64,000 nucleotides of DNA from an uncultured Pseudomonadota bacterium (GCA_947303585.1 CAMYYT010000001.1:18008-82007); one strand, 5' to 3'; shown: positions 7,654-63,778, counted from the stretch's first letter. Notes: generated by a model not told the origin, from the letters alone. Numbers and translations: made by a program.

Positions 7654-7657
7654 AAAT

Positions 7658-7679
7658 ACCGGCATTCGCCGGTGTTTTT
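7658..7679 (+). terminator. Rho-independent terminator after nth
   Basis: ACCGGC-attc-GCCGGT followed by GTTTTT. Confidence 0.8.
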
Positions 7680-7689
7680 ATAAATTTTA

Positions 7690-7765
7690 TGGTGCCGGTT
7701 ATAGGACTTGAACCTACGACCCCCTCATTACGAATGAGATGCTCTACCAACTGAGCTAAACCGGC
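7690..7765 (-). tRNA. tRNA-Thr (anticodon CGU)
   Basis: The reverse complement GCCGGTTTAGCTCAGTTGGTAGAGCATCTCATTCGTAATGAGGGGGTCGTAGGTTCAAGTCCTATAACCGGCACCA folds as a cloverleaf. Anticodon loop is TTCGTAA and CCA is encoded. Confidence 0.93.
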
Positions 7766-7810
7766 GTGTCACGCAAATAATAACCAACAAAAACCTAAAA
7801 TTCAAGGTTT

Positions 7811-8287: not shown

Positions 8288-8312
8288 ATATTTTTTCCTT
8301 TTGATTTCTTTT

Positions 8313-14464: not shown

Positions 14465-14541
14465 TGGTGGGTGGTATTGGGCTCGAACCAACGACCTCCA
14501 CGATGTCAACGTGACGCTCTAGCCAACTGAGCTAACCACCC
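14465..14541 (-). tRNA. tRNA-Val (anticodon GAC)
   Basis: The reverse complement GGGTGGTTAGCTCAGTTGGCTAGAGCGTCACGTTGACATCGTGGAGGTCGTTGGTTCGAGCCCAATACCACCCACCA has anticodon loop TTGACAT. CCA is encoded. Confidence 0.93.
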
Positions 14542-19840: not shown

Positions 19841-19914
19841 TGGAGGCCAGGGTCGGAATCGAACCGGCATCCAAGGATTTGCAGTCCTCTGCATAACCAC
19901 TCTGCCACCTGGCC
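19841..19914 (-). tRNA. tRNA-Cys (anticodon GCA)
   Basis: The reverse complement GGCCAGGTGGCAGAGTGGTTATGCAGAGGACTGCAAATCCTTGGATGCCGGTTCGATTCCGACCCTGGCCTCCA has anticodon loop CTGCAAA. Confidence 0.9.
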
Positions 19915-20035
19915 TTCACGTATGCGTATCTTAGGCAAAAAAAAATCATATTTCAACATAAAAATGAAGGGGTCAGAAAAAGAATTTGTTCCCCTGTTTT
20001 TAAGGGCTAAAAAAGGGTATCTTTTATATAGAAAT

Positions 20036-21349
20036 ATGAAGAAGGGAATCTTGATTTTTGCTGTTTTTCCCTGTGTCGCATTGGCAGATAGTGATTGCGC
20101 AACTATGCGTCATGTTCCAAGTCATGAAATGACATTGGTTGAAATAATAGATATTGCCCTTTGTCGAAATCCGCATACAGCTGCTGCTTACGCATCTTTG
20201 CAATCTGCGCGATATACAAAAAATGCGGCACATTCGTATTATTTGCCAACAGTATCGGGCAGCGCGCACGCAAACCGCGACCATACTGTACACGATGATT
20301 GGGATTATACGGTGTCTCTGTCTGCTTCGTATTTGATATTTGATTTTGGTAAACGAGAATCAGATTTTGCACAAACTTTGGCAACTTATCGCGCGGCAGG
20401 CTTTGATTATGATGAAACAATACAAAATTATGTTTATTCGGTTATCGGGGCTTATTATGCATTACTTAATATGGATGCAGATGTAAAATCTGCTGGGGCT
20501 TCATTGAAAGTTGCTCAAACAGCGAAAGAAACAGCGGACAAAAAATACAAAGCAGGTGCGGTAGCAAAGGCAGATGTATATAAAGCAGATACCACCTTGG
20601 CTTCATCTCAACTTGAATTGGAACGCGCAAAAAATAATCGTGAAATCGCCAAAGGAACATTGTTAAACACGTTGTCTTTCCCAGCAAACGAAGATATTCA
20701 TATCAAAGATATGCCGATTAGTTTTGGCAGTGATACGGAAAGCGAAAGCATAGATGAATTAATAAACATAGCACGCAAACAAAGACCTGATTTATTAAAA
20801 GCGCATTCTCAAACAAACGCAGCTTGGCATCGGCGCAACAGTGCTTTTTTGAAAAATTTACCGTCTATTTCTGTGACTGGTGGTGTGGATGTGACTGATA
20901 AAACATTTGGCGGTATGTTTGAAAATATGTCTGCCAAAATCAAAGGTAATTTTGGTGTGTCTGTATCAATGCCAATATTCACAGGTTTTTTAAATTATTA
21001 CAATACACGTGCAGCAAATTCTGATTATGAAAGTATGAAATACAGTGAACAAAATATAAACAATGCCGCAACTATGGACGTTTTTACTGCGTACCAAAAT
21101 TATAAAACGGCGCGAACAGTATTAAAACAAACAGAAACACTTCTTAAATCGGCCACAGAAAATGAACATGTGACTTCGGGAATGTATCGTGTTGGGCGTT
21201 CAACAATGTTAGATTGGCAAACAGCCCAATCAGAATTGGCTGATGCGCGTAAACAAAATAATTCTGCAAAATATGATTTGTTTATTAAACGCGCAGCAGT
21301 TGCGCTGGCTATTGGTGATATAAAAAAGGGATTAAAGGACGATAAATAA
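20036..21349 (+). CDS. TolC-family outer membrane efflux protein
   Basis: Signal peptide MKKGILIFAVFPCVALA from the ATG at 20036. Two OEP-type repeats. First gene of a four-gene efflux operon. Confidence 0.8.
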   Translation: MKKGILIFAVFPCVALADSDCATMRHVPSHEMTLVEIIDIALCRNPHTAAAYASLQSARYTKNAAHSYYLPTVSGSAHANRDHTVHDDWDYTVSLSASYLIFDFGKRESDFAQTLATYRAAGFDYDETIQNYVYSVIGAYYALLNMDADVKSAGASLKVAQTAKETADKKYKAGAVAKADVYKADTTLASSQLELERAKNNREIAKGTLLNTLSFPANEDIHIKDMPISFGSDTESESIDELINIARKQRPDLLKAHSQTNAAWHRRNSAFLKNLPSISVTGGVDVTDKTFGGMFENMSAKIKGNFGVSVSMPIFTGFLNYYNTRAANSDYESMKYSEQNINNAATMDVFTAYQNYKTARTVLKQTETLLKSATENEHVTSGMYRVGRSTMLDWQTAQSELADARKQNNSAKYDLFIKRAAVALAIGDIKKGLKDDK

Positions 21350-22533
21350 TGGAAGAAATAAAAAGGCCAAACTTTTTTATAAGGTTGTTTTCGTGGCTTT
21401 GGCGCAATAAATGGTGGGTGTCTGGTTCGATTATAATTGTTGTATTGATGTTGTGGTGGGCGGGTGTTTTTTCTTCGTCTAAAAAGCATAAATACATAAC
21501 TGCAGATATTACGCGTGGCGACATAGTTCAAACTGTGACAGCCAGTGGTGAAATACAACCTGTTAATACTATCAATGTGGGGTCCCAGGTTTCTGGTACC
21601 ATAGAAGATATTTTTGTTGATTATAATTCTGTTGTTAAGAAAGGTGATATTTTATTAAAAATTGAACCATCTGTTTTGCAATCCACGGTTGATGAATCGT
21701 TGGCATTGTTGGAATCAGCCAAGGCGGAATTAAAATACGCACAAAGTGAATTTGAAAGAAATCAAAGTTTATATAATGACGGATTTATTTCGCGTGCAGA
21801 AATGGAAAAATCACAAACGCTTTATGAACAAGCACAACAAGCGGTAAACAAAGCGCAATATGCTTTTGAGCGAGCTGAAACAAATCTTGGTTATGCGACT
21901 ATTACTTCGCCTGTGGACGGCACGGTAATTTCAAGAAAGGTAGACAAAGGTCAAACTGTGGCGGCGTCTTTTCAAACGCCAGACTTGTTTGAAATTGCTG
22001 AAGATTTATCGAAAATGCAAATTGAAACCGCTGTATCCGAAGCAGATATTGGTATGGTCAAAGAAGGATTGCCTGTAACTTTTACAGTAGACGCGTATCC
22101 GAATATGACTTTCAAAGGAAATGTCCAACAAATAAGGTTGTCCCCGACAAATGTTTCTAATGTGGTTGTTTATACTGTTGTGATTGATGTAGATAACAGC
22201 GATTTGAAATTAATGCCCGGAATGACTGCTTTTGTGACAGTTGTGGTTGCCGAAGCTAAAGATGCGCTAAAAACAAAAAATTCTGCACTTTTGATGCGCA
22301 GTTTTCAAAATGTTATCAAAGATAAAGTTTTGGATGAAAAGATAACACCAAAAACTCATCTCGCTATTAAACGCGACAAAGACATAGTGTTTGTGCCGTA
22401 TACAAAGGGTTTAACGACGCCTACGGAAACGCAAATCATATCTGATGATATAAAGGAAACAGACAAAATCATTGTTGGAATTGAAGGACAAACAACCACT
22501 AATAAATCGTCTATGCCGGGACCAAGAATGTAA
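21349..22533 (+). CDS. HlyD/MacA-family periplasmic adaptor
   Basis: N-terminal TM, lipoyl/barrel-sandwich motifs (VGSQVSGTIEDIFVDYNSVVKKGDILLKIE; ITSPVDGTVISR), and a coiled-coil hairpin. Confidence 0.85.
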   Translation: MEEIKRPNFFIRLFSWLWRNKWWVSGSIIIVVLMLWWAGVFSSSKKHKYITADITRGDIVQTVTASGEIQPVNTINVGSQVSGTIEDIFVDYNSVVKKGDILLKIEPSVLQSTVDESLALLESAKAELKYAQSEFERNQSLYNDGFISRAEMEKSQTLYEQAQQAVNKAQYAFERAETNLGYATITSPVDGTVISRKVDKGQTVAASFQTPDLFEIAEDLSKMQIETAVSEADIGMVKEGLPVTFTVDAYPNMTFKGNVQQIRLSPTNVSNVVVYTVVIDVDNSDLKLMPGMTAFVTVVVAEAKDALKTKNSALLMRSFQNVIKDKVLDEKITPKTHLAIKRDKDIVFVPYTKGLTTPTETQIISDDIKETDKIIVGIEGQTTTNKSSMPGPRM

Positions 22534-22534
22534 A

Positions 22535-23284
22535 ATGAAAAAACAAACGCCGCCAATCATTTTCTTAAACAAAATAAATAAAGTTTTCCCGCTGGCTATC
22601 GGTGGTGTTCAACAGGTTTTATTTGATATAAATTTTACTATAAATGCAGGTGAATTCGTTGCGATTATGGGACCGAGTGGTTCTGGGAAATCAACATGTA
22701 TGAATATAATCGGGGCATTGGATGGCGCGACATCTGGCACATACGAATTATACGGCAAAGATATTTCAACTATGACACCTGATGATTTAGCAACTGTTCG
22801 AAACGAATATATCGGTTTTGTTTTTCAAAATTTTAATTTGCTTTCTAAACGCACAGTCTTGGACAATGTAATGTTGCCATTGATGTATCGTGGCATAGTT
22901 ATGCACGACAGAATATCGCGCGCACGCGAAATGTTAAAATTAGTGGGACTTGAAAATTTTGAAACTTATCTTTCCACGCAATTGTCGGGTGGTATGAAAC
23001 AACGAGTTGCAATCGCGCGTGCTTTAGCAGGAAATCCAAAATTAATTCTGGCAGATGAACCAACAGGTTCGCTGGATTCAAAAATGGGAAACGAAATATT
23101 AAAATTTTTTGAAAAATTAAACCATGATTTTGGGATTACTATTGTGATGATAACGCACGAATTTCAAATATCGCAATACGCACGGCGAATAATTCATATT
23201 TATGACGGGCGAATTACTTACGATGGACCTGTTCCTAAAAGTGAAACTGTATTATTAAAATCAGAAAAACGAGCTAAAAAATGA
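22535..23284 (+). CDS. ABC transporter ATP-binding protein (MacB/LolD-type, separate ATPase)
   Basis: GPSGSGKST, LSGGMKQRVAIARAL and LADEPTGSLD. The ATG at 22535 lies 1 nt after the adaptor stop. Confidence 0.9.
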   Translation: MKKQTPPIIFLNKINKVFPLAIGGVQQVLFDINFTINAGEFVAIMGPSGSGKSTCMNIIGALDGATSGTYELYGKDISTMTPDDLATVRNEYIGFVFQNFNLLSKRTVLDNVMLPLMYRGIVMHDRISRAREMLKLVGLENFETYLSTQLSGGMKQRVAIARALAGNPKLILADEPTGSLDSKMGNEILKFFEKLNHDFGITIVMITHEFQISQYARRIIHIYDGRITYDGPVPKSETVLLKSEKRAKK

Positions 23285-24498
23285 CCCTGGGAGACATATT
23301 AAAAGAATCTTGGATATCTGTAAGCGGAAACAAATTAAGGTCGTTTCTGACAGTTCTGGGTATTATTATTGGCGTTATGGCGGTGGTGATAATGGTGGCA
23401 GTTGGCGAAACAGTTCAAAAATCAATCACAGACCAATTTTCATCGCTTGGAACAAATACGATTGTCGTTCGTGCAGGTGCGGCGCGTAATCGTGGTGTTC
23501 GTATGGGCAGCAATCAAACCCTTACAATAACTGATACAGATCAAATTAAAAGATTGCCGGATGTTATGTATATAACTCCGGCTCAAATGGGAAACGCCCA
23601 GGTTATCTATGGTAATAAAAATTGGTCGACGATGGTGCTGGGGGTGTATCCTGATTATTTAGCAATTCAAGACATAGAAATGGAATGTGGAACATCATTT
23701 GATATGAACGCAGTAAAAAATGCTGCTGCGTACGCAATAATCGGTCCTGATACAGCGTATGAATTAGGATTACCGGATAATCCAGTTGGAGAATTTATAC
23801 GAATCCAGCATATACCTTTTGTTGTTGTCGGTGTAATGAAAGCGCGTGGTGATTCAGCCTTTGGTTCCCAAGATGATATGATAATAATTCCAATAACTAC
23901 ATTCAAAAAACGTCTGCAAGGTTCTAAATTTCCTGATGCTGTTACAATGATAGCGCTCAAAATTTTCCCAGACGCGAATAACAATGTAGTAATTGAGCAA
24001 ATAACATCGCTTTTGCGGCAAAGACATCGGTTAAAAGATAGCGACGAAGACGATTTTCAAATCACAGATATGAAACAAATAATGGAAACAATGGATACTG
24101 TGACAGGTTATCTTAAATTGCTACTTATCGCGATAGCGGCGGTTTCGTTATTAGTTGGTTCCATAGGAATTATGAATATGATGTTAACATCTGTCGCCGA
24201 ACGCACGCGTGAAATTGGTATTCGCAAAGCAATCGGCGCGCGCGAACGCGTAATCATAATTCAGTTTTTATCAGAATCAATAATGATATCTTTTATCGGT
24301 TCCATGATAGGTTTAGTGCTGGGGGTTGGTTTATCCCAAGGTGTCGGTCGATTGATATTGCATTACGATGTCCCGTTTTCAATTTGGCCGGTAATTTTAT
24401 CTGTGGGCGTTGCGGTTGTTGTGGGGTTAGCATCAGGTGTAATGCCCGCAATCAAAGCTGCTAAATTAAACCCGATTGATAGTTTAAGATATGAATAA
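23281..24498 (+). CDS. ABC transporter permease (MacB/FtsX-type)
   Basis: MacB_PCD-like periplasmic domain and a C-terminal FtsX domain (ERTREIGIRKAIGAR..NPIDSLRYE). ATGA overlap with the ATPase gene. Confidence 0.9.
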   Translation: MTLGDILKESWISVSGNKLRSFLTVLGIIIGVMAVVIMVAVGETVQKSITDQFSSLGTNTIVVRAGAARNRGVRMGSNQTLTITDTDQIKRLPDVMYITPAQMGNAQVIYGNKNWSTMVLGVYPDYLAIQDIEMECGTSFDMNAVKNAAAYAIIGPDTAYELGLPDNPVGEFIRIQHIPFVVVGVMKARGDSAFGSQDDMIIIPITTFKKRLQGSKFPDAVTMIALKIFPDANNNVVIEQITSLLRQRHRLKDSDEDDFQITDMKQIMETMDTVTGYLKLLLIAIAAVSLLVGSIGIMNMMLTSVAERTREIGIRKAIGARERVIIIQFLSESIMISFIGSMIGLVLGVGLSQGVGRLILHYDVPFSIWPVILSVGVAVVVGLASGVMPAIKAAKLNPIDSLRYE

Positions 24499-38146: not shown

Positions 38147-38224
38147 TTCTCGTCTCTAACCGTCACAAACAAAAATAAAAACCGAGATAAACTCGGTTTA
38201 AATTTTTGGTGGACGTTAAGAGAC
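38147..38224 (-). repeat. Direct repeat copy 2: 3' end of the intact tRNA-Val(UAC) plus trailer and terminator
   Basis: See copy 1. It overlaps the last 18 nt of the functional tRNA gene. Confidence 0.85.
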
Positions 38225-38283
38225 TCGAACTCCTGACCCTCTCGGTGTAAACGAGATGCTCTAGCCAACTGAGCTAAACGTCC
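38207..38283 (-). tRNA. tRNA-Val (anticodon UAC)
   Basis: The reverse complement GGACGTTTAGCTCAGTTGGCTAGAGCATCTCGTTTACACCGAGAGGGTCAGGAGTTCGAGTCTCTTAACGTCCACCA has anticodon loop TTTACAC. Confidence 0.92.
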
Positions 38284-49305: not shown

Positions 49306-49986
49306 TTATCGTGCGGGTGTTAATCTTATTTCTACGCGGCGATTTGTAAGTCGTCCCATATCGTCTTGGGCGGCAATTGGTCGCGCAGAACCGCGCCCCA
49401 CAATAAACATCCGTGATGTAGAAACATTGTGACGCGCAAAATAAACACCAACGCGTTCTGCCATATCCAAAGACAAAGCATGCGCGGCATTTTGATTCTT
49501 CATAGAATCTGTATAGCCTGCAATTTCCATAAAAGTTGCATTATATTTGTTCAAAATTTTTGAGATTATATTTAATGTGTCTGCGCCGTCCGAAGATATA
49601 TCAGCGATATTTTCTTGCATAATTGCGCCACGCACCAAAATAATAACCACATCTGTTCCGGCGCGTTGAACAGACATACCTGGTTTGCGCAAAGCATCAT
49701 ATAATTCGTATTCTAATGCACTCATATAATTAACCAACACTGCATTATCTATGGCGTTTTTATCGCCGTATTGCATGTTGCTGGATAATTCCCCAGTCTG
49801 TGTAATTATCTTGCCACCGTGCCCCATATAAATAGGTAATTTTGCAGCCCGTGATGTTTCGTTCATGTCCATAAAAGATGCACCACTAAGATATTGTTGC
49901 CAATTTTCTCGTGATGGACTTTGGTATTGCAAGCAAGATGCCAGCAATATTGAAAAACTTATAAAAATAATTTGTTTTAATTTCAT
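49306..49986 (-). CDS. OmpA/MotB-domain lipoprotein
   Basis: Lipobox LLASC. C-terminal OmpA-like domain GYTDSMKNQNAAHALSLDMAERV..GRGSARPIA..NRRVEIRL. Confidence 0.75.
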   Translation of the reverse strand: MKLKQIIFISFSILLASCLQYQSPSRENWQQYLSGASFMDMNETSRAAKLPIYMGHGGKIITQTGELSSNMQYGDKNAIDNAVLVNYMSALEYELYDALRKPGMSVQRAGTDVVIILVRGAIMQENIADISSDGADTLNIISKILNKYNATFMEIAGYTDSMKNQNAAHALSLDMAERVGVYFARHNVSTSRMFIVGRGSARPIAAQDDMGRLTNRRVEIRLTPAR

Positions 49987-49989
49987 ATC

Positions 49990-50445
49990 TTATTGTGCAA
50001 AAAACGATATTGTATTGTCGCCAGTTTTCATACAAAATGAAGAATCTCCTGATTCATATCCGTTAACACTTAGATGTGTAATCCAATCAATCTTTTTCGT
50101 AGTGAAATAAGCACATTCTTCAAAACTTAATTCAACAAGATTAACAGAAAATTCGCTGCCATCAAAATTGCTTGTCACAGACCATCCATCTCCACCAGCT
50201 GGCGCTTTGTCGTTAGCAATCACCCCAGATTCAATCAAGAAATCAACGGACACAGGTGTATATCCAGAATATTCCAAAAGAGTTTTAGTTTTTGTCACGA
50301 TGTCTTTCAATTCTTCGTTGGCGATTAAACGCTTTTGCTTTTCATTTGTAGAATGATACATGCTGTATGTGGCGGACAGCATAATTGCACCAATAGCCAA
50401 AACACCGATAATTTCAATTAATGAACGGCCTGATTGTTCTCTCAT
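49990..50445 (-). CDS. Type IV pilin-like / pseudopilin-like protein (151 aa)
   Basis: MREQSG|RSLIEIIGVLAIGAIML shows Gly, then Glu at +5, then a hydrophobic helix. There is a C-terminal Cys pair (EECAYF...SSFCMK). It lies 17 nt after dnaX and 3 nt before the OmpA-like gene. Confidence 0.6.
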   Translation of the reverse strand: MREQSGRSLIEIIGVLAIGAIMLSATYSMYHSTNEKQKRLIANEELKDIVTKTKTLLEYSGYTPVSVDFLIESGVIANDKAPAGGDGWSVTSNFDGSEFSVNLVELSFEECAYFTTKKIDWITHLSVNGYESGDSSFCMKTGDNTISFFAQ

Positions 50446-52055: not shown

Positions 52056-52370
52056 TTATTTCAAATTTGCGATGAAATCAGGAAAACCCATTTCTTCGTC
52101 TTCGTTAGAATCGTTTGCGTCTGAATTTTCAGATGTTTCGGCAATTTCTTGGGCCGCAGCTTTGTCTTTTGGATCGCGTTGAGAATCAATTTTTATTTGT
52201 TCTTCATTAACAATACGACCATAATGTTCCGCGGCTTGCAGCAAGCGTTCGCGTTCGATTTCGTCACTTGTTTGACGTGCTTGATCGATATATTGTTTTC
52301 TTTTTTGACGCCATTTATGACAGCGCTGTATCATTTGCCCCACAGAGGTTTGGTTTTTTTTACTTGGCAT
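52056..52370 (-). CDS. DUF4167-like small protein
   Basis: QKRKQYIDQARQ..ERERLLQAAEHYGRIVNE matches the remembered DUF4167 core (..QHAEHY.R..). Acidic C-terminus. Confidence 0.5.
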   Translation of the reverse strand: MPSKKNQTSVGQMIQRCHKWRQKRKQYIDQARQTSDEIERERLLQAAEHYGRIVNEEQIKIDSQRDPKDKAAAQEIAETSENSDANDSNEDEEMGFPDFIANLK

Positions 52371-52464
52371 GTTTTTTCTTTTGTTCTTAAGGAAATTATT
52401 TTTAACGACAATCTATGTTATCGCTCCATTTCAACAACACTATGTTAAAACATCTTAAAACTGA

Positions 52465-52493
52465 TTGCAATAATTTTTTTCAATTGCTATGCT
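52465..52493 (+). promoter_or_regulatory. Candidate promoter of the pilin-like operon
   Basis: TTGCAA (52465-52470), 17-nt spacer, TATGCT (52488-52493). It overlaps the inverted repeat GCAAT..ATTGC. Confidence 0.45.
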
Positions 52494-52517
52494 ACTTATT
52501 AATAGGAGGGATTTTCT

Positions 52518-53870
52518 TTGCAAAACCAAAAGGGTAATTTTTTAATGCAAGCATTATTGGCATTGACTTTGGTTTTTGCTTTTATGCCTTTTTTTGCTAG
52601 TAAATTATCCAGACGCGATATGTCTGCGCAAATGTATGCAGCAACAGAACAAATAGAAACAGTATATGATGTGGCGCGCAATTTTTTACGTGAAGAAAAA
52701 GAAAATTTGCCATATAAAAAACAAGAGTTGTCTGGTGGAACATTTGTTTCTACCTTGGAAAGTTATGGATTGCCTGTTGGGTTTATTCCGCAAACTTCGT
52801 TGGGGCAAGAATTGTCTTTGGTCATAGATAAAAATGAAGATGGAATTTTAAGTTATATTAAAATCAGGGGTGGGGATTTATCTAAAATTGAATTGGCAGA
52901 ATTGGCGCGGCGGATCGGTTTTTATGCTGATGTCAAAGGAAATCACTTAGAAGTGGTCGTTCCAATCGATACTGTATATTCTGATATTGTGTCTAGAAAA
53001 GAAACAGATGAAAATATTGGGTTTTTATCTGAATTGGATATGAACGATAATAACATAGATAAAGTTGGTGTTTTATTTGCGCGAAACGGGGCTTTTGAAA
53101 CGGCACAATTTAATACTTTGGTTCTTTATGGACTTGAATCAGGTCGAAATGAAAAAAATAGCATATCGGACATATACGCAAACAGAACAGTTTTTCAAAG
53201 TGCTGATGGTGGTGCTGCTTTGTCTATGGGGCGCGGTGAATTAAATGTAAGTGATTTGTCTTTACGGACAATTTCAAAATTTGGAACGGCTGGTGGTTTT
53301 GAATCAAACTATGCTTCGGTTTATGAATTTTCGATGGCCGAAGGTAAAACTGGGTTTTCTGGACCGTCTGATTGGATGGTTAGTGGTTCTGTTCGTGCAG
53401 ATAATTTCAGTTTTAATGTGGATAGATTGGAAATAGGTTCATATTTAGATGCGTCTCGTGGTCAAGATGTTTATGTGGATTCAAATTCTTTACAATATAA
53501 CACTAAAATGGGTATAGATGTAAAAAATATTTATGCGGCTAATATATCGTTGCGTGACCAAACTTCGTATGGATTGTTGAATGGACAAACTGGACCATTG
53601 TTAATAGATATTAGACCTGCTGGGACTTCGTTATTACCCGATGTTTATGTTGATACCATAGACAATGATTCTTTTGAAATTATTGAAGATCCAAAATCTG
53701 CAGATACAAAAATGATTTCTTGTCGGGATGTTATAACGGGGTTAAATGGAAATTACAACAAAAAATCTTTGGTGCAAAATATAATTTGTCAGTATGTTTT
53801 TTGGCAAAGGTTAGAAGCAAGAATAGATATAAAACAATGTTTAATGAGTGGCAGAAGTGATTGTATATAA
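52518..53870 (+). CDS. Large pilin-like protein A (450 aa, Gln at +5)
   Basis: TTG start 7 nt after AGGAGGG. N-terminus MQNQKG|NFLMQALLALTLVFAF. Four C-terminal Cys. Paralogous to the next two ORFs. Confidence 0.55.
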   Translation: MQNQKGNFLMQALLALTLVFAFMPFFASKLSRRDMSAQMYAATEQIETVYDVARNFLREEKENLPYKKQELSGGTFVSTLESYGLPVGFIPQTSLGQELSLVIDKNEDGILSYIKIRGGDLSKIELAELARRIGFYADVKGNHLEVVVPIDTVYSDIVSRKETDENIGFLSELDMNDNNIDKVGVLFARNGAFETAQFNTLVLYGLESGRNEKNSISDIYANRTVFQSADGGAALSMGRGELNVSDLSLRTISKFGTAGGFESNYASVYEFSMAEGKTGFSGPSDWMVSGSVRADNFSFNVDRLEIGSYLDASRGQDVYVDSNSLQYNTKMGIDVKNIYAANISLRDQTSYGLLNGQTGPLLIDIRPAGTSLLPDVYVDTIDNDSFEIIEDPKSADTKMISCRDVITGLNGNYNKKSLVQNIICQYVFWQRLEARIDIKQCLMSGRSDCI

Positions 53871-53895
53871 AAAGCATTTTAACAGGTTGGTTTTG

Positions 53896-55053
53896 ATGTC
53901 GCAACGCGGTGCGTCTATGACAGAAGTGATATTGGCAGTGGCTGTAATTGTTGCTGTATCGCCTTTTATATATAATCAAATTTTGAATATGGCGCGCGAT
54001 TCTGAAGATATTGCCAAAGCAAATCAGATTGTAAAATATCGTGATGGAATTATAAATTTCTTACGCATAAATCAAAACAAATGGGAAGATGCGGACGAAA
54101 TAAAAATGACCGATGAAGAAATAGAAGAAATCGCTCCGTTGGCGCATACTGTTTTCATAGATAAATACAAAGTAAATGGCGCCACAATAACCGAAGCGTA
54201 TCTTGCGTTTACTATTCCGCAATCAAGATATCGTGTTGCAAACATTGCTAAACAAATAGGGGAAGATGCAGCCGTTGTTCGTGAAGATGGTATTGCTTAT
54301 TCGCAAAGTTGGGCGGTGTCCGCCCCTGAAAATTTTTATGTGGGTGATTTAATTTATCGTGTTTCGCGTGATTTTGAAGGTGCAGATAAATCTAAATTTT
54401 TACATCGTGGCACAATGGGTGAAGATAATTTAAATCAGATGCAGCGCAATTTGCATATGAATAATTTTAATATATTTAATGTTTCTGATATTGATGCGGT
54501 GTCTGCCAAGATTGTTGATGCGGATGCAGTATTTTTAGATGCATCTGTTGTTGATGCGAATAATATATATTTTTCGTCTGGCGCGAATATGAATTCGGCA
54601 AATATGGCTGTGGGTTCTATGCGTGTTACTGGTGACACAAATGGTTTTAAAACTATAATGGCTGATAAACTTAATGGTGATAAATATACAACAAATGGGC
54701 GTATCATAGCGGACAGAGCTACAATCGGAAATTCAATAAATGTATCTGGGAATTTAATTTTAAAATCTGCCAGCGCCACTACATCAAGTGGTTTTGGTGG
54801 AATTTCAATGAATAAACTTTTGACCCCGTATATTTCTGCAACAGATATGAGCTTTTTTGAAAATTATGGTATAACAGTATCCGGAGAATTATTATTGGCA
54901 GCCCAGGCGCCATTAAAAATAGGAACTTGGGTTTTTCCGTCTGTCACGCCACCATCTTTTTCGAAATTTATATTAACGCGTGCAACATTACCAGCAACAC
55001 CTGATGCAGATGAATTTAAAAAGTTAACAGACAAAGATTGGCAAACGAAATGA
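53896..55053 (+). CDS. Large pilin-like protein B (385 aa)
   Basis: MSQRG|ASMTEVILAVAVIVAV (Glu at +5). Motif FLHRGTMGEDNLNQMQRNLHMNNFNIFNV. The C-terminal half is rich in Asn, Ser, Gly, Val and Ala. The ORF-track GTG start at 53848 overlaps gene A. Confidence 0.55.
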   Translation: MSQRGASMTEVILAVAVIVAVSPFIYNQILNMARDSEDIAKANQIVKYRDGIINFLRINQNKWEDADEIKMTDEEIEEIAPLAHTVFIDKYKVNGATITEAYLAFTIPQSRYRVANIAKQIGEDAAVVREDGIAYSQSWAVSAPENFYVGDLIYRVSRDFEGADKSKFLHRGTMGEDNLNQMQRNLHMNNFNIFNVSDIDAVSAKIVDADAVFLDASVVDANNIYFSSGANMNSANMAVGSMRVTGDTNGFKTIMADKLNGDKYTTNGRIIADRATIGNSINVSGNLILKSASATTSSGFGGISMNKLLTPYISATDMSFFENYGITVSGELLLAAQAPLKIGTWVFPSVTPPSFSKFILTRATLPATPDADEFKKLTDKDWQTK

Positions 55054-56369
55054 TGTTAAGAAAAAAACATTTTGAACAAAAAAATTCACAACATGGTGGT
55101 ATGTTGGTTGAATTGATGATGACTATTGCATTGGCAGCAATCATAATTCCGTTTGTTTTTCGTTATCAGCAAACATCTGTATCTCGTGCCAGAAACGTAG
55201 CGGTCGCCAAACAAATGGAAAATGTTCAAAATGCGCTGGAGAGATATATCATAGAAAACAAAATTGAATTAATGCGTCCAACGGGCAAAAATATATCTCG
55301 AATAAACATAGGGGATTTGGTTAATTATGGTTTGCCCGAATATATTGCGGATAACTACAAAAACGATTATCAGTTGCGCATATTAAAAACAGCAGACAAT
55401 AACAACAAGGCTGTTTTACAGGGTGTTGTAATTTTGTCTAATAGAGAAATAACACCGCTTCGAACACGTGAAATAGTAAACCTTGGTGGTGGCAAATTTG
55501 GTTTTGTTGAAGGAAATACAACATACGGTGGTTTTGGGGCTTTTCGTGCGAATGCCACAGATTTTGGAATTACGGATACCAAAGGTTTAGTTGGAACAAC
55601 GGCTACAACGCGTGGTAGTACAGAATATTTATGGCGTATACCATCAGAAAGTGAAATTGATGCAACAATGCAATCGCCGCTAAATTTGGATGGACACGAT
55701 TTACAGAAAGTGCGTTTTTTTGATGCGTCCAAAGCACAATTTGAAGAAAAATTAAAAGTAGAAAAACTAGCCACAGATTCTTTGGTGTTTTCTAATCGTG
55801 CAACCATAGATGCGGTTTTTGCTACGAATACAGCGGTTGTAAATGGCGCTTTTACATCTGATTCTCGGACTTTGAATGTTGGCGGGGTTTTGGCTTTGGC
55901 AGATTCAGCAAAGTTTTCTTCATTTTATACAAATGATTTGTATGTTAATACTTTGACATTAAATGGTTTTACTGTGACAAAATCAGCAGACAAATCATCA
56001 ACTTTGAAAATCATAGGTGATATGGATTTGGTACTTGGTCATATCACAGCATCGTATGTCTCGGTGGGCTATACAGGTTCTGTCACGCCGCAATTAACAA
56101 TTAGCGAAAAAATCCAAGACCCAAAAGATTCTTCATATTATTGGAATGTGAAAACCAAAAAAGCGCGTTTTGCGGATGTGAATTTTCCAGATTTGGCGCG
56201 TATGGCATCAGACATTGTGAAAATGGAATCTAAACCGGGCAGCGTTGCAACGACTGTTTTTGGTGGTGTTGCAGCAAATGCGAATGCTACGGTCGGAGAT
56301 TATATTAACGCACTGAACGATATACAAACGCAAATCAAGGAAAAATATCAACAGTTGAATTTAGAATAA
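55050..56369 (+). CDS. Large pilin-like protein C (439 aa)
   Basis: MMLRKKHFEQKNSQHG|GMLVELMMTIALAAIII (Glu at +5). ATGA overlap with the gene B stop. Motif YLWRIPSESEIDATMQSPLNLDGHDLQKV. Confidence 0.55.
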   Translation: MMLRKKHFEQKNSQHGGMLVELMMTIALAAIIIPFVFRYQQTSVSRARNVAVAKQMENVQNALERYIIENKIELMRPTGKNISRINIGDLVNYGLPEYIADNYKNDYQLRILKTADNNNKAVLQGVVILSNREITPLRTREIVNLGGGKFGFVEGNTTYGGFGAFRANATDFGITDTKGLVGTTATTRGSTEYLWRIPSESEIDATMQSPLNLDGHDLQKVRFFDASKAQFEEKLKVEKLATDSLVFSNRATIDAVFATNTAVVNGAFTSDSRTLNVGGVLALADSAKFSSFYTNDLYVNTLTLNGFTVTKSADKSSTLKIIGDMDLVLGHITASYVSVGYTGSVTPQLTISEKIQDPKDSSYYWNVKTKKARFADVNFPDLARMASDIVKMESKPGSVATTVFGGVAANANATVGDYINALNDIQTQIKEKYQQLNLE

Positions 56370-56407
56370 TTTATGGTATAAATCTGAAATAACCCTGGGG
56401 GTAATAG

Positions 56408-56920
56408 ATGAAAACAGTATGTGATTTTTGTAAAACTGAATATTTGCTAGATAAAATGCCTAATACACAAGTTAAATGTGCAGTATGTGGGCATGTTTGG
56501 ACGCCACGTGTTCCTTTTCGTCAAAATGCTACCATGAAATTGATTGCGGCTATTTGTGCTTTGATTGCGGCATGTGTGTTTTCATTGGTTGTGGTGTTTA
56601 ATTTTACTTCGAAAAATACTAATAATAAGCCGTTGATTACAACCATAGATGATAAAAACATACATCTTGTAGAAGACGAAACTGGAACCAAGCGTATATT
56701 TGTGTCTGGGGATATCACGAACACCACAGATGATATTTACGGATTGCCAAACATAGTAATCGTTGCATACGATGAACACGACAATGTTTTGTCGCGCCAA
56801 GCTTTTACTCCGCCGGCAACTTTGTTGGAAGCAAAAACCACAGTCACATTTAATCATATGTTGTCTGTGAACCCTGCAAATGTAAAAAGATTATCTGTGG
56901 AATTAAAGGAATCAAAATGA
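56408..56920 (+). CDS. MJ0042-type zinc-ribbon membrane protein (DUF3426-like)
   Basis: CDFCKTEY..VKCAVCGHVW zinc ribbon, one TM (LIAAICALIAACVFSLVVVF), and a C-terminal beta domain resembling DUF3426. Confidence 0.65.
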   Translation: MKTVCDFCKTEYLLDKMPNTQVKCAVCGHVWTPRVPFRQNATMKLIAAICALIAACVFSLVVVFNFTSKNTNNKPLITTIDDKNIHLVEDETGTKRIFVSGDITNTTDDIYGLPNIVIVAYDEHDNVLSRQAFTPPATLLEAKTTVTFNHMLSVNPANVKRLSVELKESK

Positions 56921-57384
56921 AAATTTTGTCAGCAATAATTGCATCAGTTTTATTATCGCCTGCGTTTTCAGCAACTGCGCCAGCGCCACAACCTGCTCCG
57001 CGGGTCAGTTTGTTTTCTACATCAGTAGATTGGGCGGCGGTAACTGGTCGTCCTTGGCAACAATACAAAGGTGAAATCAGTGGCAGAAACAGAAAATTGA
57101 TAAAACAGGGTCTGGTATTATATTACCTTGATGCTTTTCCTTGCTATGGCGAAGCGGACAGCGTTCGCGTTTGGATATCCCCAGATGGTGAAATGTACGG
57201 GCATTTGCGTTTAGTCTGTATTGCTGCCCCAAAGACAGTATCATTTGCTTATCGTAATGCAGTGCAAGATGCTTTGGACGCGCGCACAGATGGAATTTTA
57301 ATCTGTCCGACAGATGCTGAAAGATATTTTAAGATAGATCTTTCTAAATGTGAAATTGGGCCAAAATGGACGGAATATAAATAA
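56917..57384 (+). CDS. Secreted hypothetical protein (155 aa)
   Basis: Signal peptide MKILSAIIASVLLSPAFSA. ATGA overlap upstream and TAATG overlap with rluD. Confidence 0.5.
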   Translation: MKILSAIIASVLLSPAFSATAPAPQPAPRVSLFSTSVDWAAVTGRPWQQYKGEISGRNRKLIKQGLVLYYLDAFPCYGEADSVRVWISPDGEMYGHLRLVCIAAPKTVSFAYRNAVQDALDARTDGILICPTDAERYFKIDLSKCEIGPKWTEYK

Positions 57385-58343
57385 TGTCAGAAATCCGCAA
57401 CTTTATTGTAGATAGTGAAAACACAGGTATCCGTTTGGATAAATTTTTGGCGAATTATATGCCAGAATTTTCACGCAGCGAAATTCAAAAATTTAATATT
57501 AAACGCGCTGATGGTAAAACATTAAAATTATCAGACAAAACCAAAGAAAACGAAGAATTTATCGTTGAAATTCCAGATAAAAAAACAGACATCGCTTACG
57601 ACAATATTTCAAATGATTTTGATTTAGATATTTTGTTTGAAGACGATGATATAATTGTTTTGGATAAGCCGCGTGGTGTTGTAATGTATCCATCGGCTGG
57701 GAACAAAACGGGAACGCTTGTCCAAAATTTATTATCTTACACGCATTTATCAACACTTGGCGGATTGACAAGACCTGGGGTTGTTCATCGCCTTGACAAA
57801 GATACCAGCGGGGTTATGGTTTTTGCCAAAAGTGACGCGGCATATCGTGGTTTGGTAAAAATGTTTTCAACTCACGATTTGACAAGAAAGTACATAGCAT
57901 TTGTTTGGGGTGTTCCGACATGGGGCGGGGCAGAAATTACTGGGAATATCGCGCGTTCTTCGCGCAACAGACAAAAAATGAGTTTGGTTAAAACAGGTGG
58001 CAAACCAGCTCATACAATCGTCAATGTTATGGATGCTTGGACACGACCTGGGATTTCTTTGTTTCGTTGTACATTAATGACGGGGCGAACACATCAAATC
58101 AGGGTTCATCTGTCTTCGCATGGTTTTCCAGTTTTATGCGACCCATTATATGGACGCGAAAAATCGCACCTAGGTTCGGTCAAAGACCCGGCATTATTGG
58201 AATTTTTGAAAACGCATAATGGGCAAATGTTACACGCGGAAGTTCTGGAATTCAAGCATCCAGTAACAGGTGAACAGATGCATTTCAAATCTCGTATGCC
58301 AATCGACATGATGGAATTGAAAGAAATCCTGGACGGCGAATAA
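57384..58343 (+). CDS. rluD: 23S rRNA pseudouridine synthase RluD family
   Basis: N-terminal S4 domain (RLDKFLANYMPEFSRSEIQK). Catalytic HRLDKDTSGVMVFAK. RTHQIRVHL. Confidence 0.9.
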   Translation: MSEIRNFIVDSENTGIRLDKFLANYMPEFSRSEIQKFNIKRADGKTLKLSDKTKENEEFIVEIPDKKTDIAYDNISNDFDLDILFEDDDIIVLDKPRGVVMYPSAGNKTGTLVQNLLSYTHLSTLGGLTRPGVVHRLDKDTSGVMVFAKSDAAYRGLVKMFSTHDLTRKYIAFVWGVPTWGGAEITGNIARSSRNRQKMSLVKTGGKPAHTIVNVMDAWTRPGISLFRCTLMTGRTHQIRVHLSSHGFPVLCDPLYGREKSHLGSVKDPALLEFLKTHNGQMLHAEVLEFKHPVTGEQMHFKSRMPIDMMELKEILDGE

Positions 58344-58477: not shown

Positions 58478-61400
58478 ATGAAAAATATCGTCAAAACCGT
58501 TAGTTTACTAACAATAGTTTCTTTGATTCCTGCGGCTTTCGCTGCTACATCACGTGTCGGCGTTACGAACAAGGCGTCTGCACGGTTGCCGTCGATTGCG
58601 GGGCATATTTTGTCTGGTGGCACAACCACGACAACCACGACTGCGACAACGGCGTCTTACTATGGCGCTGCTGATTGTGTTGAAAAATACGAAGATTGTT
58701 TGCGTGCTGACGATGTTTGTGGTTCTAATTTTGAAGAATGTACAACTAACGTTTTGCTTCATGCCCAAATGCCAAAATGTTCGAATATTTTGTATCAATG
58801 TTCGGCTGCGGGGGTTCAACAGTTATTTGGGACATCTGCAATAACGGCTCTTTCTACTGTGGCGTCTGACGGTTATGTCAAGGATGACAAAGGAAACAAT
58901 ACAACCGAAGTGGCGGAATATATGTATCCACTTAAAAATTCAGAATTGAATAATTTGATTGCTGGTGCAAAAGAAGGTAACAAATTAACCAAAGAACAAT
59001 GTGTTAAACGTTATACAAATTGTTTACAACGTGATGATGTCTGCGGTGAAAATTTTGAATTATGCACAAGCGACAGGGAATTTAAAAAACAAGCGGTCCT
59101 TTGTGATTCAACATTTGAACGTTGTCCAACAGATGCCAAACGTGAATTATTTGGTTCTACAGAGGCGGCGGCAAGTTTAAAACCAGCAGCAAATTCTGAA
59201 AACAACTACAACAGATTAAGAACACTTATCGAAGACGGGCGTGCGTATGCGGTTGGTAATGCGGTAAAAACTTGTAACAAAGTTGTGAAAAATTGTTTTG
59301 TTAATGCGTGCAGCAAAAATCCTTTCCGCTGTGTCGAAGGGGTAAGTATTGCACAGATAAATACTGCAGATTTTCTTGGAACTGGAACAAGTGCTATTAA
59401 TACCGAAGATATTGATATGACAGAAACCCAAGACGCAACGGCAGTTCGTAAATGGTTAAAGGGTCAATGCCGCGATACAATTGGTTCAAATAAGTCTTGT
59501 CACATGGTGTATCGTGAAAAGAATAATATTTCAGAATCTGAATTGATGAATACAGAATTTCAAGAAGAAGTATTTAATCTTGCATATTCTGACAAAACTG
59601 TTCAAGATGCTATACAGGTGCAAATGCAAGAAAATATCAAAGTTTTTGATACAAATGCGAAAAATGCATGTGTGGAAACTATAAAATCTTGCGCAATGCG
59701 TTCTTGTGGTGGCGGTTTGGGGTCTGTGTGTTATAAACAGGCAAGATACAGCACATCGTCAACAACGATGCCTGCAACTTTCACAAACAATCTTACTAAC
59801 ACTACCAGCACAATTAATATGACAGCAACCGCGATAAATGACAACGGTGTTCATATCAATGGTGATAACACATATGGTGATATCGAAGCGGGTTGTTCAG
59901 CAATTGTTAACGCGGATCCAAATTGTCAATATGCTGCAACCGCATCATCCTCAGATGGATATACATACAATTATACACGAAATAATACATTTTCAACATT
60001 GTTCCCAAAGGGCGGTTCTTTGGCACAAGACCCGATTGGTGCGATTGGAAAATTGAATGCGTTGTTGGCAACATCATATAATGACGCCGCAATTGAAAAA
60101 ATGAAAAAACAATGCAGAACAATCGCGCTTTCTTGCGTTGAATCTGTCTGTGGCGAAGATTATATTAATTGCTATCGTAACAGAACAGACATTGTTGCTG
60201 GCAAGGGTGGTTCTGGAACATATGCCACAAACACAAAGTTGGATAAAAGTATGAACAAGGTTGGTGGTGTTCTTGATTACAATATCGTTATTGGTTTGTG
60301 TATGAATACCGTTAAAAGTTCATCTGTGTGTGAAGAACACTTGAAGGTTGCAACAGCCGAATGGCGCAACAGTCAAGATGATAATAGTTGGGGTGATGCA
60401 AATTCAGTTGGCGAAAGCTGGTTGGGCGCAAATGCAACAAAAACTGATAAAGTTTTGATTGGTTGCCGTGCTAGTGAACAAAGTAAGAAAGGTTCAAATC
60501 TTAGTATTTTTGCCAAGAAAGATTGTAGCGATATGATGCCACCAGTTAATAATTCTTGTGATGGTGTAGCAAGTTTTGGTTGTACATACGACGAACCTGT
60601 GTATCAAGAACAGTCTGAATATGTGTTGGAAAATGGTGCGACAACTTTGTTCCAAGATTTATTGCGCGATGTTGAAATGCAGGCACAGATGTTGTATAAC
60701 GCGAAACTTACCAAAGAACAAAATATCTGCCGTAGTAATAACAATGGTGGTATTATGGGTAAGGGCGACAATGGTTCTACATTTATGTGGGTGAAATTAA
60801 ATGGTTCAAAGGTTCCAGGAAACTACCCAAGCCAAGGTTTGGCTTCGAACCAATTCACAGCGTCAAATGATTTGTATGGTTCGTTCTGCCGTGCGAAAAT
60901 TACTGTCCAATCTGACGATAAAGATATCCAAAATTTATTGGAAGATAAACAAACAGCTTATTTCGCAGTTGGTGATTCATTTACCTGTGGTTCATGGATA
61001 AGCGATGCCGATTTACGTAAAATTTCTGACACGGTTGGTAATCGCGCCCTTTGCCAAGAAGGCTATGGAAAATGGGTAGACGGTGAATGCAAAACAGATG
61101 GTGTTGCTAACCGTTCAACCAAAGAACATATCGCATACGCATGGGGTACAGTCGCGCCAATGTTGGCAGGTGGTGCTTTGGGCGTCGGCTTAACCGAATC
61201 TGGATTATTAGCAGGCCTGACTGCAAAATCCAATGGCGGTAACACACAGAAGCAAAACAAAACGTTGTGTTCAAAATACGCTGCTGCTGCTGAAACACCA
61301 GGTGATGCACAACAATCAAATCTTGATCTCGCAAAGCAGTATTGTGAAAAAGTTTATTCTAGTTCTGCAAAAGAGTGTGAAGATATTTCTGGGAACAACA

Positions 61401-61699
61401 CGGCCACGGCCAAGAAAATTAGGATTGCCTGTGATGAAGCTAGTGATAAAGATACTTGGGGAACAACAAAGGAAGAAAAAGGTCTTGGAACCAGAATTGC
61501 TGTTCCGCTTGCAACCGCTGCTGTTGGTGGTGCATTGGGTGGTGGTATAACTGCTTCGGTTATTAAACAAAAGAAAGAAAATATTAAAAACGAAGCTGCT
61601 CAAAAATGGATGGATGAAATCGGTGAACATATCCAATGTTATTTGGGAACCGATGAATTGGGAACATACGGCGACGTAGTATCCATTGAATTAGATTAA
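58478..61699 (+). CDS. Giant secreted cysteine-rich protein (1073 aa) with two C-terminal Gly-rich hydrophobic segments
   Basis: GGAGAAAGGGG SD. Signal peptide ..LIPAAFA|ATS. A poly-Thr run. More than 50 Cys, including a duplicated module C-x3-Y-x2-CL-x2-DDVCG-x-NFE-x-CT. I recognise no family. Confidence 0.7.
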   Translation: MKNIVKTVSLLTIVSLIPAAFAATSRVGVTNKASARLPSIAGHILSGGTTTTTTTATTASYYGAADCVEKYEDCLRADDVCGSNFEECTTNVLLHAQMPKCSNILYQCSAAGVQQLFGTSAITALSTVASDGYVKDDKGNNTTEVAEYMYPLKNSELNNLIAGAKEGNKLTKEQCVKRYTNCLQRDDVCGENFELCTSDREFKKQAVLCDSTFERCPTDAKRELFGSTEAAASLKPAANSENNYNRLRTLIEDGRAYAVGNAVKTCNKVVKNCFVNACSKNPFRCVEGVSIAQINTADFLGTGTSAINTEDIDMTETQDATAVRKWLKGQCRDTIGSNKSCHMVYREKNNISESELMNTEFQEEVFNLAYSDKTVQDAIQVQMQENIKVFDTNAKNACVETIKSCAMRSCGGGLGSVCYKQARYSTSSTTMPATFTNNLTNTTSTINMTATAINDNGVHINGDNTYGDIEAGCSAIVNADPNCQYAATASSSDGYTYNYTRNNTFSTLFPKGGSLAQDPIGAIGKLNALLATSYNDAAIEKMKKQCRTIALSCVESVCGEDYINCYRNRTDIVAGKGGSGTYATNTKLDKSMNKVGGVLDYNIVIGLCMNTVKSSSVCEEHLKVATAEWRNSQDDNSWGDANSVGESWLGANATKTDKVLIGCRASEQSKKGSNLSIFAKKDCSDMMPPVNNSCDGVASFGCTYDEPVYQEQSEYVLENGATTLFQDLLRDVEMQAQMLYNAKLTKEQNICRSNNNGGIMGKGDNGSTFMWVKLNGSKVPGNYPSQGLASNQFTASNDLYGSFCRAKITVQSDDKDIQNLLEDKQTAYFAVGDSFTCGSWISDADLRKISDTVGNRALCQEGYGKWVDGECKTDGVANRSTKEHIAYAWGTVAPMLAGGALGVGLTESGLLAGLTAKSNGGNTQKQNKTLCSKYAAAAETPGDAQQSNLDLAKQYCEKVYSSSAKECEDISGNNTATAKKIRIACDEASDKDTWGTTKEEKGLGTRIAVPLATAAVGGALGGGITASVIKQKKENIKNEAAQKWMDEIGEHIQCYLGTDELGTYGDVVSIELD

Positions 61700-62955: not shown

Positions 62956-62979
62956 AAAACGCCCGTTCGGGCGTTTTTT
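62956..62979. terminator. Bidirectional terminator between lpxD and the convergent Cys-rich gene
   Basis: AACGCCC-gttc-GGGCGTT flanked by A and T runs. Confidence 0.8.
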
Positions 62980-63778
62980 ATTTCGGACAAACTTCTAATA
63001 ATCCGTGTGTTGTTTGTATTTCATCGTTTATATATACTGTGATATCGCGTTGCATACCGTCTGTGTAATTATACACAAAAGGTTTTTCAGCAAACAATGG
63101 TGCGCGTTCATATATATCAAAGAACGGTTCCAACAGAGATTCAAACCATTGACGATTTTTGCAAAGACATGCATTTCGAACATCTGCGACCATTTGACCA
63201 GTAACGCCATTTGAATAACTGTGTGCGATTTCATCGTCGTTCATAACCATACAACGTGACGCCACAGCAAATTCGTTAGCATCGTCTTTCAAGAATTGAT
63301 AAACGGCTGCATCACTTGCGCCTTTTTGACGCATCTTGTAAATGATTCCTTCGCTGCAACAGGCGCGTGAAGCGTTCATCAAAATTTTATATCTTTCAAC
63401 CAATGGCGCCATTGCTTCGTTATCTGCATTGACATCGTAATTGGAATATATTGCATACAAAACATCGTCTTCGCGGACAGGATTCATATGCGGAGAACGC
63501 GGAAACGAAGCCGTTTTATACACAGGCTTTTTATACCATATTTCACATTCAGCCATCGAAGTAAACGGACAAACGGATGAATAGCCACACGAAGTATCGC
63601 AAGTTTCAACTGGTTCAGGTTCAACATATTGTGGTGCCAAGATTTCTACTTTGTCGACTTCTTCTTCCAAGACAACAGGTGTTAATTCACAATCTTTGCC
63701 CACACATTCAGACGCGTTCGCACAATTTGCACTAAACGCAATAGCAATAAATGCCAAAAAAGAAATTTTATTTTTCAT
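62978..63778 (-). CDS. Secreted cysteine-rich hypothetical protein (266 aa, 13 Cys)
   Basis: Signal peptide MKNKISFLAFIAIAFSANCANA. Cys clusters ECVGKDC, ETCDTSCGYSSVCP, ACC and NACLC. No known family. Confidence 0.6.
   Translation of the reverse strand: MKNKISFLAFIAIAFSANCANASECVGKDCELTPVVLEEEVDKVEILAPQYVEPEPVETCDTSCGYSSVCPFTSMAECEIWYKKPVYKTASFPRSPHMNPVREDDVLYAIYSNYDVNADNEAMAPLVERYKILMNASRACCSEGIIYKMRQKGASDAAVYQFLKDDANEFAVASRCMVMNDDEIAHSYSNGVTGQMVADVRNACLCKNRQWFESLLEPFFDIYERAPLFAEKPFVYNYTDGMQRDITVYINDEIQTTHGLLEVCPK

Follow-up and report, generated by a model that had tools for sequence, protein, structure and literature searches.

A conserved trio of PilV-like prepilin genes, unlinked to pilus genes, in the chromosome of Candidatus Enterousia

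Three consecutive prepilin-type genes

The stretch of DNA analysed here, called the window below, comprises 64,000 nucleotides (nt) from an uncultured Pseudomonadota bacterium (GCA_947303585.1 CAMYYT010000001.1:18008-82007), with positions counted from its first letter. The host is Candidatus Enterousia of the order Rs-D84, with a genome of about 0.9 Mb, and the window is chromosomal. Between dnaX and rluD lie three consecutive genes for large PilV-like prepilins, here named A, B and C. Gene A (52518-53870, +) was called as an open reading frame (ORF) of 450 amino acids (aa) with a TTG start, and an AGGAGG at 52504-52509 stands 8 nt 5' of that start. Its product has the leader MQNQKG followed by NFLMQALLALTLVFAFMPFF, and the residue at position +5 is Gln, not Glu. 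Gene B (53857-55053, +; 398 aa, revised GTG start) encodes a leader ending in KKHFNRLVLMSQRG, then ASMTEVILAVAVIVAVSPF, with Glu at +5. An initial annotation of the locus had begun B at an ATG at 53896 (leader MSQRG, 385 aa), an inner codon that is missing in most orthologues. Because a start codon 17 codons 5' of the Gly of B is kept in 15 of the 15 loci checked, the inner ATG is mostly absent, and gene callers give 398 aa for B in loci L032-L034, B most likely spans 53857-55053 and overlaps A by 14 nt.

Gene C (55050-56369, +; 439 aa) has its ATG overlapping the stop codon of B as ATGA, and its leader MMLRKKHFEQKNSQHG is followed by GMLVELMMTIALAAIIIPF, again with Glu at +5. The full leader of B reads M-IVYKKHFNRLVLMSQRG and has the residues KKHF in common with that of C; both are basic and 16-18 residues long. 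Long basic leaders are typical of type IVb prepilins. Since B starts inside the 3' end of A, within the 14-nt overlap, A, B and C are probably translationally coupled.

The prepilin-type start that had been claimed for all three proteins was confirmed, with a leader, a Gly and a hydrophobic helix in each of the consecutive ORFs. The N-terminal pattern of Gly, Glu (or Gln) at +5, hydrophobic helix and Pro is kept in every orthologue of A, B and C. Across 80 diverse homologues, residues G16, E21 and P34 of C are conserved at 90% or more; R196 does not vary among them and M207 hardly does, and these last two show that the L-x-R...M...L motif noticed earlier is real. The full prepilin signal is present in B and C, with Gln at +5 in A. 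This Gln5 is conserved in Enterousia and in a related lineage (L029). Since the first genes of two more distant trios (L020 and L025) keep Glu5, it is a trait of Enterousia-type lineages and no general signature of a filament cap; in a further trio (L023) the call of the first gene is truncated at the motif. The analogy drawn in the initial annotation between A, which lacks Glu5, and the tip-capping pseudopilin GspK is thus weak.

Homology to PilV and relationships within the trio

The likeness to the constant region of PilV, which had been put forward in the initial annotation, was borne out by profile comparison and reciprocal BLAST. Family profiles for A, B and C were built from their orthologues and aligned (hhalign) with a reference set of seven Shufflon_N proteins, all of them hits above the cut-off for Pfam PF04917 (Shufflon_N). 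The C family matched this set at a probability of 99.3% (E 2e-20, 283 columns), and at 99.6% in the run shared with A and B, in which A reached 96.8% (E 2.5e-10, 182 columns) and B 98.8% (E 8e-17). In the motif region, YLWRIPSESEIDATMQSPLNLDGHDLQKV of C stands opposite SD-LYR-V-G-P-LN-M-TAIDMG-NNLNNA of the Shufflon_N set. PF04917 itself matched 15 of 62 diverse homologues of C, with a best E of 1e-105, and a precomputed Shufflon_N match exists for P0163, an orthologue of C from another lineage that is the third gene of its trio and shows 29% identity along its full length. A tblastn search of C against 72,556 plasmids returned just four matches (E 2e-7 to 6e-4), and all four are annotated as 'shufflon system plasmid conjugative transfer pilus tip adhesin PilV'. 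The reverse search, with a Citrobacter PilV, recovered C in the window (E 4e-13). From these sequence comparisons we regard it as nearly certain that the first 200-300 residues of A, B and C share ancestry with the constant region of PilV, a relationship that is remote but solid. In C, residues ~14-313 correspond to the constant region; the protein then continues through a beta-rich middle part and ends in a bundle of helices.

In the thin pilus of R64/TP114, the minor pilin that acts as adhesin is PilV (PMC9045228). The likeness between the trio and the PilV proteins of IncI1/IncI2 plasmids (R64, TP114; PF04917) extends over the N-terminal 200-300 residues, including the block L-x-R ... N/T-M-x-(S/T)-x-L-x-(L/M). 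On either side the proteins are of prepilin type, measure 385-450 aa and are thus roughly three times as large as a major pilin, and in both a beta-rich region follows the pilin domain. However, identity between PilV and A, B or C is just 24-32% over ~200 residues. PilV systems have one gene with switchable ends, whereas three fixed paralogues are found here, chromosomal, among housekeeping genes and unlinked to pilN-pilU. Their C-termini are conserved and not switchable, and there are no sfx repeats and no Rci. A search for shufflon-type repeats at 52400-57400 found short repeats at chance level only, and the Pfam scans of the window contained no integrase, relaxase, type IV secretion system (T4SS) or Rci-type recombinase.

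The paralogy of A, B and C was likewise upheld by the family profiles, in a narrower form than first described: it is real, and it is limited to the N-terminal 180-250 residues. Pairwise BLASTP aligned 55-83 aa at the N-terminal end with E of about 1e-3. Profile-to-profile alignment joined A and B at 97.6% (E 3e-12, 178 columns), A and C at 98.0% (E 2e-13) and B and C at 99.6% (E 2e-24, 225 columns). Relatedness of the C-terminal halves was undetectable. When the C-family profile was run against 1.84 billion representatives, only 209 clusters matched at E<=1e-3, among them full-length A-like (P0269) and B-like (P0267, P0268, P0246) proteins. A family of only ~200 clusters (50% identity) is thereby added to the range of type IVb minor pilins. 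Some of its members are far longer: proteins of ~1,000 aa (P0220, P0227 and ~15 other clusters; examples at L019, 212-3292, and L024, 2477-5488) have the PilV-like N-terminal region of 230 residues and a long unassigned extension, and one of them lies near a fliL gene.

An AlphaFold2 (AF2) model of C from 80 aligned diverse sequences had a mean predicted local distance difference test score (pLDDT) of 80; a first run on a shallow alignment (33 sequences, >=71% identity) reached 44 and was discarded. The model places a 55-residue N-terminal helix against a beta-sheet, with the sheet and short helices reaching to ~residue 185 (pLDDT 84-94), short strands of lower confidence at 223-340, and three C-terminal helices at 380-435. 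When the model was compared with the Protein Data Bank (PDB) by Foldseek, the type IVb pilin PilS stood at rank 8 (E 1.3). The predicted pilin-like topology of C is consistent with the homology and is not independent proof of it. A sequence search of the PDB with the C profile recovered the N-terminal helix of geopilin alone (E 0.09).

Conservation and gene neighbourhood

When one genome of each species was scanned, the C gene turned up in 18 metagenome-assembled genomes (MAGs), four of them labelled Candidatus Enterousia and the others Alphaproteobacteria or 'uncultured proteobacterium', with rumen, sheep, yak and horse gut among the sources. In all 18 the arrangement is the same: one strand carries ompH, the ompA-like gene, a gene for a 151-aa pilin, dnaX and a DUF4167 gene, and the opposite strand carries A, B, C, a zinc-ribbon gene, a 155-aa gene and rluD. 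Identity across the MAGs is 62-84% for A, B and C (67-84% for A, 18 loci), compared with 85-93% for dnaX. The trio is conserved about as well as its housekeeping neighbours, although less than dnaX. Conservation is uniform along each protein; the C-termini are as conserved as the N-termini, with no hypervariable end. Judged from these alignments, strong purifying selection acts on all three proteins. The guanine-plus-cytosine (GC) content of the trio region resembles that of the rest of the window. In the L029 lineage (42-50% identical) the block is kept whole, with its small pilin, zinc-ribbon gene and secreted protein, and in L030 (36% identical) a zinc-ribbon gene follows C. The link of the trio to the zinc-ribbon and secreted proteins holds within Rs-D84-type lineages only and not in the more distant trios.

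Three consecutive PilV-like genes occur in at least five other lineages (L020, L023, L025, L027 and L029), at least two of which look alphaproteobacterial. On the other contigs (L020, L023, L025, L027) the trio genes encode 420-490 aa. The L020 trio adjoins efp, the L023 trio adjoins lepA, and the L025 trio is flanked by ksgA and recO/parC and has a CcrM-type methylase in its vicinity. Two further loci (L021 and L022) are partly resolved, with PilV-like second and third genes and the first cut by the contig end. The trio is therefore a conserved unit: a chromosomal, shufflon-less, PilV-like trio unlinked to pilus genes, core to a lineage of gut alphaproteobacteria with reduced genomes and recurring in related or unidentified lineages. 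Two observations concern the surroundings of these other trios. At L027, Cys-rich or Gly-rich secreted proteins follow the trio (7592-8870). At L020, a 443-aa lipoprotein (5832-7163, 1.2 kb 3' of the trio) appeared by eye to have a secretin-like C-terminal region; it was rejected as a candidate because Pfam did not support this and the window has no homologue of it.

In the window, C is followed by a gene for a bitopic 170-aa protein (56408-56920, +), which consists of a putative CxxC...CxxC zinc ribbon (residues 1-32), a transmembrane (TM) helix (~43-66) and a periplasmic FxLYD/DUF3426-like domain (~87-165). Its four Cys are invariant in the orthologues. The protein had earlier been described as having an MJ0042-type zinc ribbon, a TM helix and a DUF3426-like domain, and the TM segment is visible in its sequence. 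The ribbon matches fell below cut-off (Zn_ribbon_4 E 7.6e-5, Zn_ribbon_5 E 0.005, MJ0042_CXXC 19.6 bits against a cut-off of 20.9), as they did in the orthologues, where Zn_ribbon_4 was seen in 17 of 17 and Zn_ribbon_5 in 14. The DUF3426 part fared less well, with a faint match (E 0.046; 2 of the 17 orthologues, sub-cut-off), and it was the FxLYD model NF038353 that scored above cut-off (E 4e-7). Zinc-ribbon matches in the PDB were not significant (E 0.03-0.6), and a tie to the ZitP or AgmX structures by sequence was unsupported.

In the order of its parts the 170-aa protein resembles ZitP of Caulobacter crescentus, also an alphaproteobacterial protein, with a cytoplasmic CxxC-x19-CxxC ribbon, one TM helix and a periplasmic DUF3426/FxLYD-like domain. 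ZitP is described as a zinc-ribbon, TM and DUF3426 protein (PMC5182063, PMC5182065), and Caulobacter requires the periplasmic DUF3426 domain of ZitP to assemble its Cpa pili (PMC5182063). It differs in length (311 aa, against 170 aa for the window protein) and in its partners, since it acts with Tad/Cpa pili, CpaM and PopZ and the window showed none of these.

A gene for a 155-aa secreted protein (56917-57384, +; signal peptide MKILSAIIASVLLSPAFSA, four Cys) overlaps the zinc-ribbon gene by 4 nt. The protein has no family match and is 55-79% identical in Enterousia and 50% in L029. Next comes an rluD-type pseudouridine synthase gene (57384-58343, +; PseudoU_synth_2 E 1.4e-27), which overlaps the 155-aa gene by 1 nt. 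The ORF coordinates thus bear out the junctions given in the initial annotation, from the ATGA overlap of B and C to the 4-nt and 1-nt overlaps further 3'. No promoter- or terminator-like site rose above chance in a scan of 51.9-58.6 kb, and no terminator-like site exceeded chance from A through rluD. The proposal of a single operon therefore draws on how closely the genes are packed and on their conserved order. As the last tightly packed gene of the string, rluD is probably co-transcribed with the trio and a functionally unrelated housekeeping neighbour. Divergent from A and 5' of it lies a gene for a 104-aa basic/acidic protein with a sub-threshold DUF4167 match (52056-52370, -), kept in all Enterousia loci; the 147-nt intergenic region between this gene and A presumably carries both promoters.

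A fourth pilin-like gene is found 2 kb from the trio (49990-50445, -). Its 151-aa product begins MREQSG, then RSLIEIIGVLAIGAIM, with Glu5, and falls just below cut-off for N_methyl (E 0.0016) and TIGR02532 (E 0.027). Its position is kept in 17 loci and in L029, and it always adjoins a gene for an OmpA-family lipoprotein. In hhalign comparisons the 151-aa protein had only its N-terminal helix in common with PilV and the trio, with no more specific kinship to either. It is a plausible candidate for the major pilus subunit. The adjoining gene, directly 3' of it (49306-49986, -), encodes a 226-aa OmpA-family peptidoglycan-binding lipoprotein (OmpA E 9e-12, YiaD-type E 1e-26), and its adjacency suggests a link to the pilins.

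Several other features of the window were recorded. On the far side of rluD is a gene for a 1073-aa Cys-rich protein (58478-61699, +) with a signal peptide, C-x-DDVCG-x-NFE-x-C-like repeats, a C-terminal hydrophobic segment and no Pfam match. It is only 44-56% identical among Enterousia genomes, compared with 80-95% for its neighbours. In L002 the gene is missing from the rluD-lpxD interval and in L005 it lies elsewhere. The protein has the look of a surface protein that evolves fast. Another Cys-rich secreted protein, of 266 aa (62978-63778, -), has no family match. The sole recognisable export system of the window (19922-24498, +) is a complete set of TolC-like OEP, HlyD-type adaptor, ABC ATPase and MacB/FtsX permease, located in a genome said to lack standard transporters. 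Four tRNA genes (7693-7765, 14468-14541, 19844-19914 and 38210-38283, all -) were the only Rfam matches in the window.

Possible role of the trio and alternative explanations

We propose that A, B and C form a PilV-derived minor-pilin complex that tips or primes a type IVb-like filament, a reading to which, taken as a whole chain, we give a probability of about 0.55. A prepilin peptidase encoded elsewhere would cleave the three leaders, and coupled translation would yield roughly equal amounts of the subunits. These would join through their N-terminal helices into a heterotrimeric cap that, by analogy with CofB/TcpB and PilV, may prime a thin type IV filament and remain at its tip; the 151-aa pilin may form the filament body. 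The divergent beta-rich or helical C-terminal halves would be the exposed surface. Because these halves are conserved, not hypervariable, and have no shufflon, their binding target would probably be a constant ligand, plausibly the surface of a partner organism or of a gut substrate that these metabolically dependent bacteria need. The ZitP-like zinc-ribbon/TM/FxLYD protein may position the complex or aid its assembly, as ZitP does for Caulobacter Cpa pili. Genomes of Rs-D84 and Enterousia measure 0.75-1.0 Mb, and a partner-dependent lifestyle has been proposed for these organisms (PMC12306168); Enterousia lacks flagella, respiration, parts of glycolysis and standard transporters (PMC12306168). 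Given these reduced genomes and the proposed dependence on a partner, attachment to a partner or substrate appears the most plausible use of such a filament.

Two known arrangements come close to the one proposed. CofB of the CFA/III pilus of enterotoxigenic Escherichia coli (ETEC) and TcpB of the toxin-coregulated pilus (TCP) in Vibrio cholerae are reportedly large type IVb minor pilins that form homotrimers at the pilus tip and start assembly. Like A, B and C, they are large multi-domain minor pilins in which beta-rich domains follow the pilin domain, and the role proposed here, a three-subunit cap that primes a filament, is the same. They differ in that each is one gene product encoded inside a pilus operon, whereas three paralogues lie here away from any operon, and no sequence or fold match to them was obtained for C. 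In the type II secretion system (T2SS) and type IVa pili, several minor pilins in a row (GspH/I/J/K and FimU-PilVWX) form the filament tip, and GspK resembles A in having no Glu5. No significant hidden Markov model (HMM) match connects these proteins to the trio, however, whose members are far bigger and descend together from one PilV-like ancestor.

A number of results weigh against the proposed tip complex. The Pfam N_methyl and Shufflon_N HMMs gave no direct match to A, B or C at E<=1, and no NCBIfam pilin model scored any of the three above cut-off, the sole NCBIfam match being that of the C N-terminal helix to GspG (E 0.09; 12.8 bits against a cut-off of 88.85). Foldseek comparison of the C model with the PDB gave nothing significant, with beta-helix proteins on top at E 0.23 or worse. 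As had been noted earlier, pilus machinery is missing from the window: Pfam scans of its 51 ORFs found no prepilin peptidase, T2SS_E ATPase, platform protein, secretin or PilO/P/M. Most of these ORFs are housekeeping genes (pheST, ileS, metG, mreB, accBC, mutS, infB, nusA, pnp, lptF/G, lptD, dnaX, rluD, lpxD), and a few are without a family match. The same machinery was not found in the ~5 kb 5' of the window, which holds rplT, rpmI, mreC and a PBP2-type transpeptidase, nor was any seen near the other trios in six contexts examined. Where the window was extended at its ends, the genes gained were all housekeeping genes. One locus of the comparison, L028, is a canonical type IVb operon with PilN secretin, PilO2, PilP, ATPases, PilR, a major pilin, PilV, a shufflon with its recombinase, a prepilin peptidase and PilM. 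When the complete Citrobacter type IVb set was searched by tblastn against the window and 27 related loci, PilV alone matched. A genomic survey of Rs-D84 mentions type IV pili for a different lineage only (PMC12306168). The resemblance of the 170-aa protein to ZitP rests on architecture and sub-threshold matches, the sequence link not being significant, and both the heterotrimer and its location at the tip are matters that we infer.

The missing machinery speaks for an explanation without any pilus, in which the genome would have lost its type IV machinery and A, B and C would be pilin-derived envelope proteins that stay uncleaved, anchored in the inner membrane by the N-terminal helix, and form a heteromeric envelope or scaffold complex in the periplasm, perhaps together with the zinc-ribbon protein. 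No machinery was present in any context examined, type IV pili are unreported for Rs-D84 (PMC12306168), the genes always lie among core genes and are conserved in a housekeeping-like manner, and their C-termini are not variable, unlike those of adhesins. We nevertheless consider this explanation unlikely. The Gly-1/Glu+5/Pro signature, which matters only for peptidase cleavage and filament packing, is kept in all orthologues and in over 200 clusters, it recurs in a conserved neighbouring gene for a fourth and smaller pilin, and the searches that missed the machinery covered the window and related loci.

A pseudopilus like that of the T2SS, with the 151-aa protein as a GspG-like major pseudopilin and A, B and C as a tip complex that pushes exoproteins out by way of a secretin, would follow the same tip-complex logic, with A resembling GspK in its lack of Glu5. 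There is faint N-terminal similarity between C and GspG (E 0.09) and between the 151-aa protein and GspH (E 0.16). These matches lie far under cut-off and are confined to the common N-terminal helix, while the significant homology is to PilV/Shufflon_N and not to GspH/I/J/K. Furthermore, the Pfam T2SS and TadE models did not match A, B or C at E<=1, Glu5 is kept in the first gene of other trios, and no Gsp genes were seen in the Pfam scans of the window. We therefore hold a pseudopilus to be quite improbable. That the locus is a mobile conjugative element with a classical PilV mating-pair adhesin is suggested by the closest annotated relatives being plasmid pilV genes. This idea is already contradicted by the conserved synteny, the dnaX-rluD chromosomal position being strictly kept in the 18 MAGs and the L029 lineage. 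With no integrase, relaxase, T4SS or shufflon repeats in the window and a GC content like that of its remainder, we give it hardly any credence. The homology to PilV supports the suggestion in the initial annotation of a lineage-specific minor-pilin module.

Work on PilV has so far dealt with one adhesin, encoded by conjugative plasmids and diversified by a shufflon, and the genes described here form a fixed, conserved chromosomal trio. That 4 kb of pilin genes are kept in a genome of less than 1 Mb implies an important function, most obviously the attachment to a partner or host. One bolder possibility, which we think doubtful, is that this core trio of giant PilV-derived pilins, kept in Rs-D84/Enterousia and related lineages, either works without canonical type IV machinery or tips a minimal pilus for attachment to a partner. 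If the genome truly has no assembly machinery, the trio would be a rare case of pilins acting outside a pilus; if it tips a partner-attachment pilus, it would be an alphaproteobacterial counterpart to the pilus-mediated epibiosis of Patescibacteria. The trio genes thus offer a concrete handle on the lifestyle of Enterousia.

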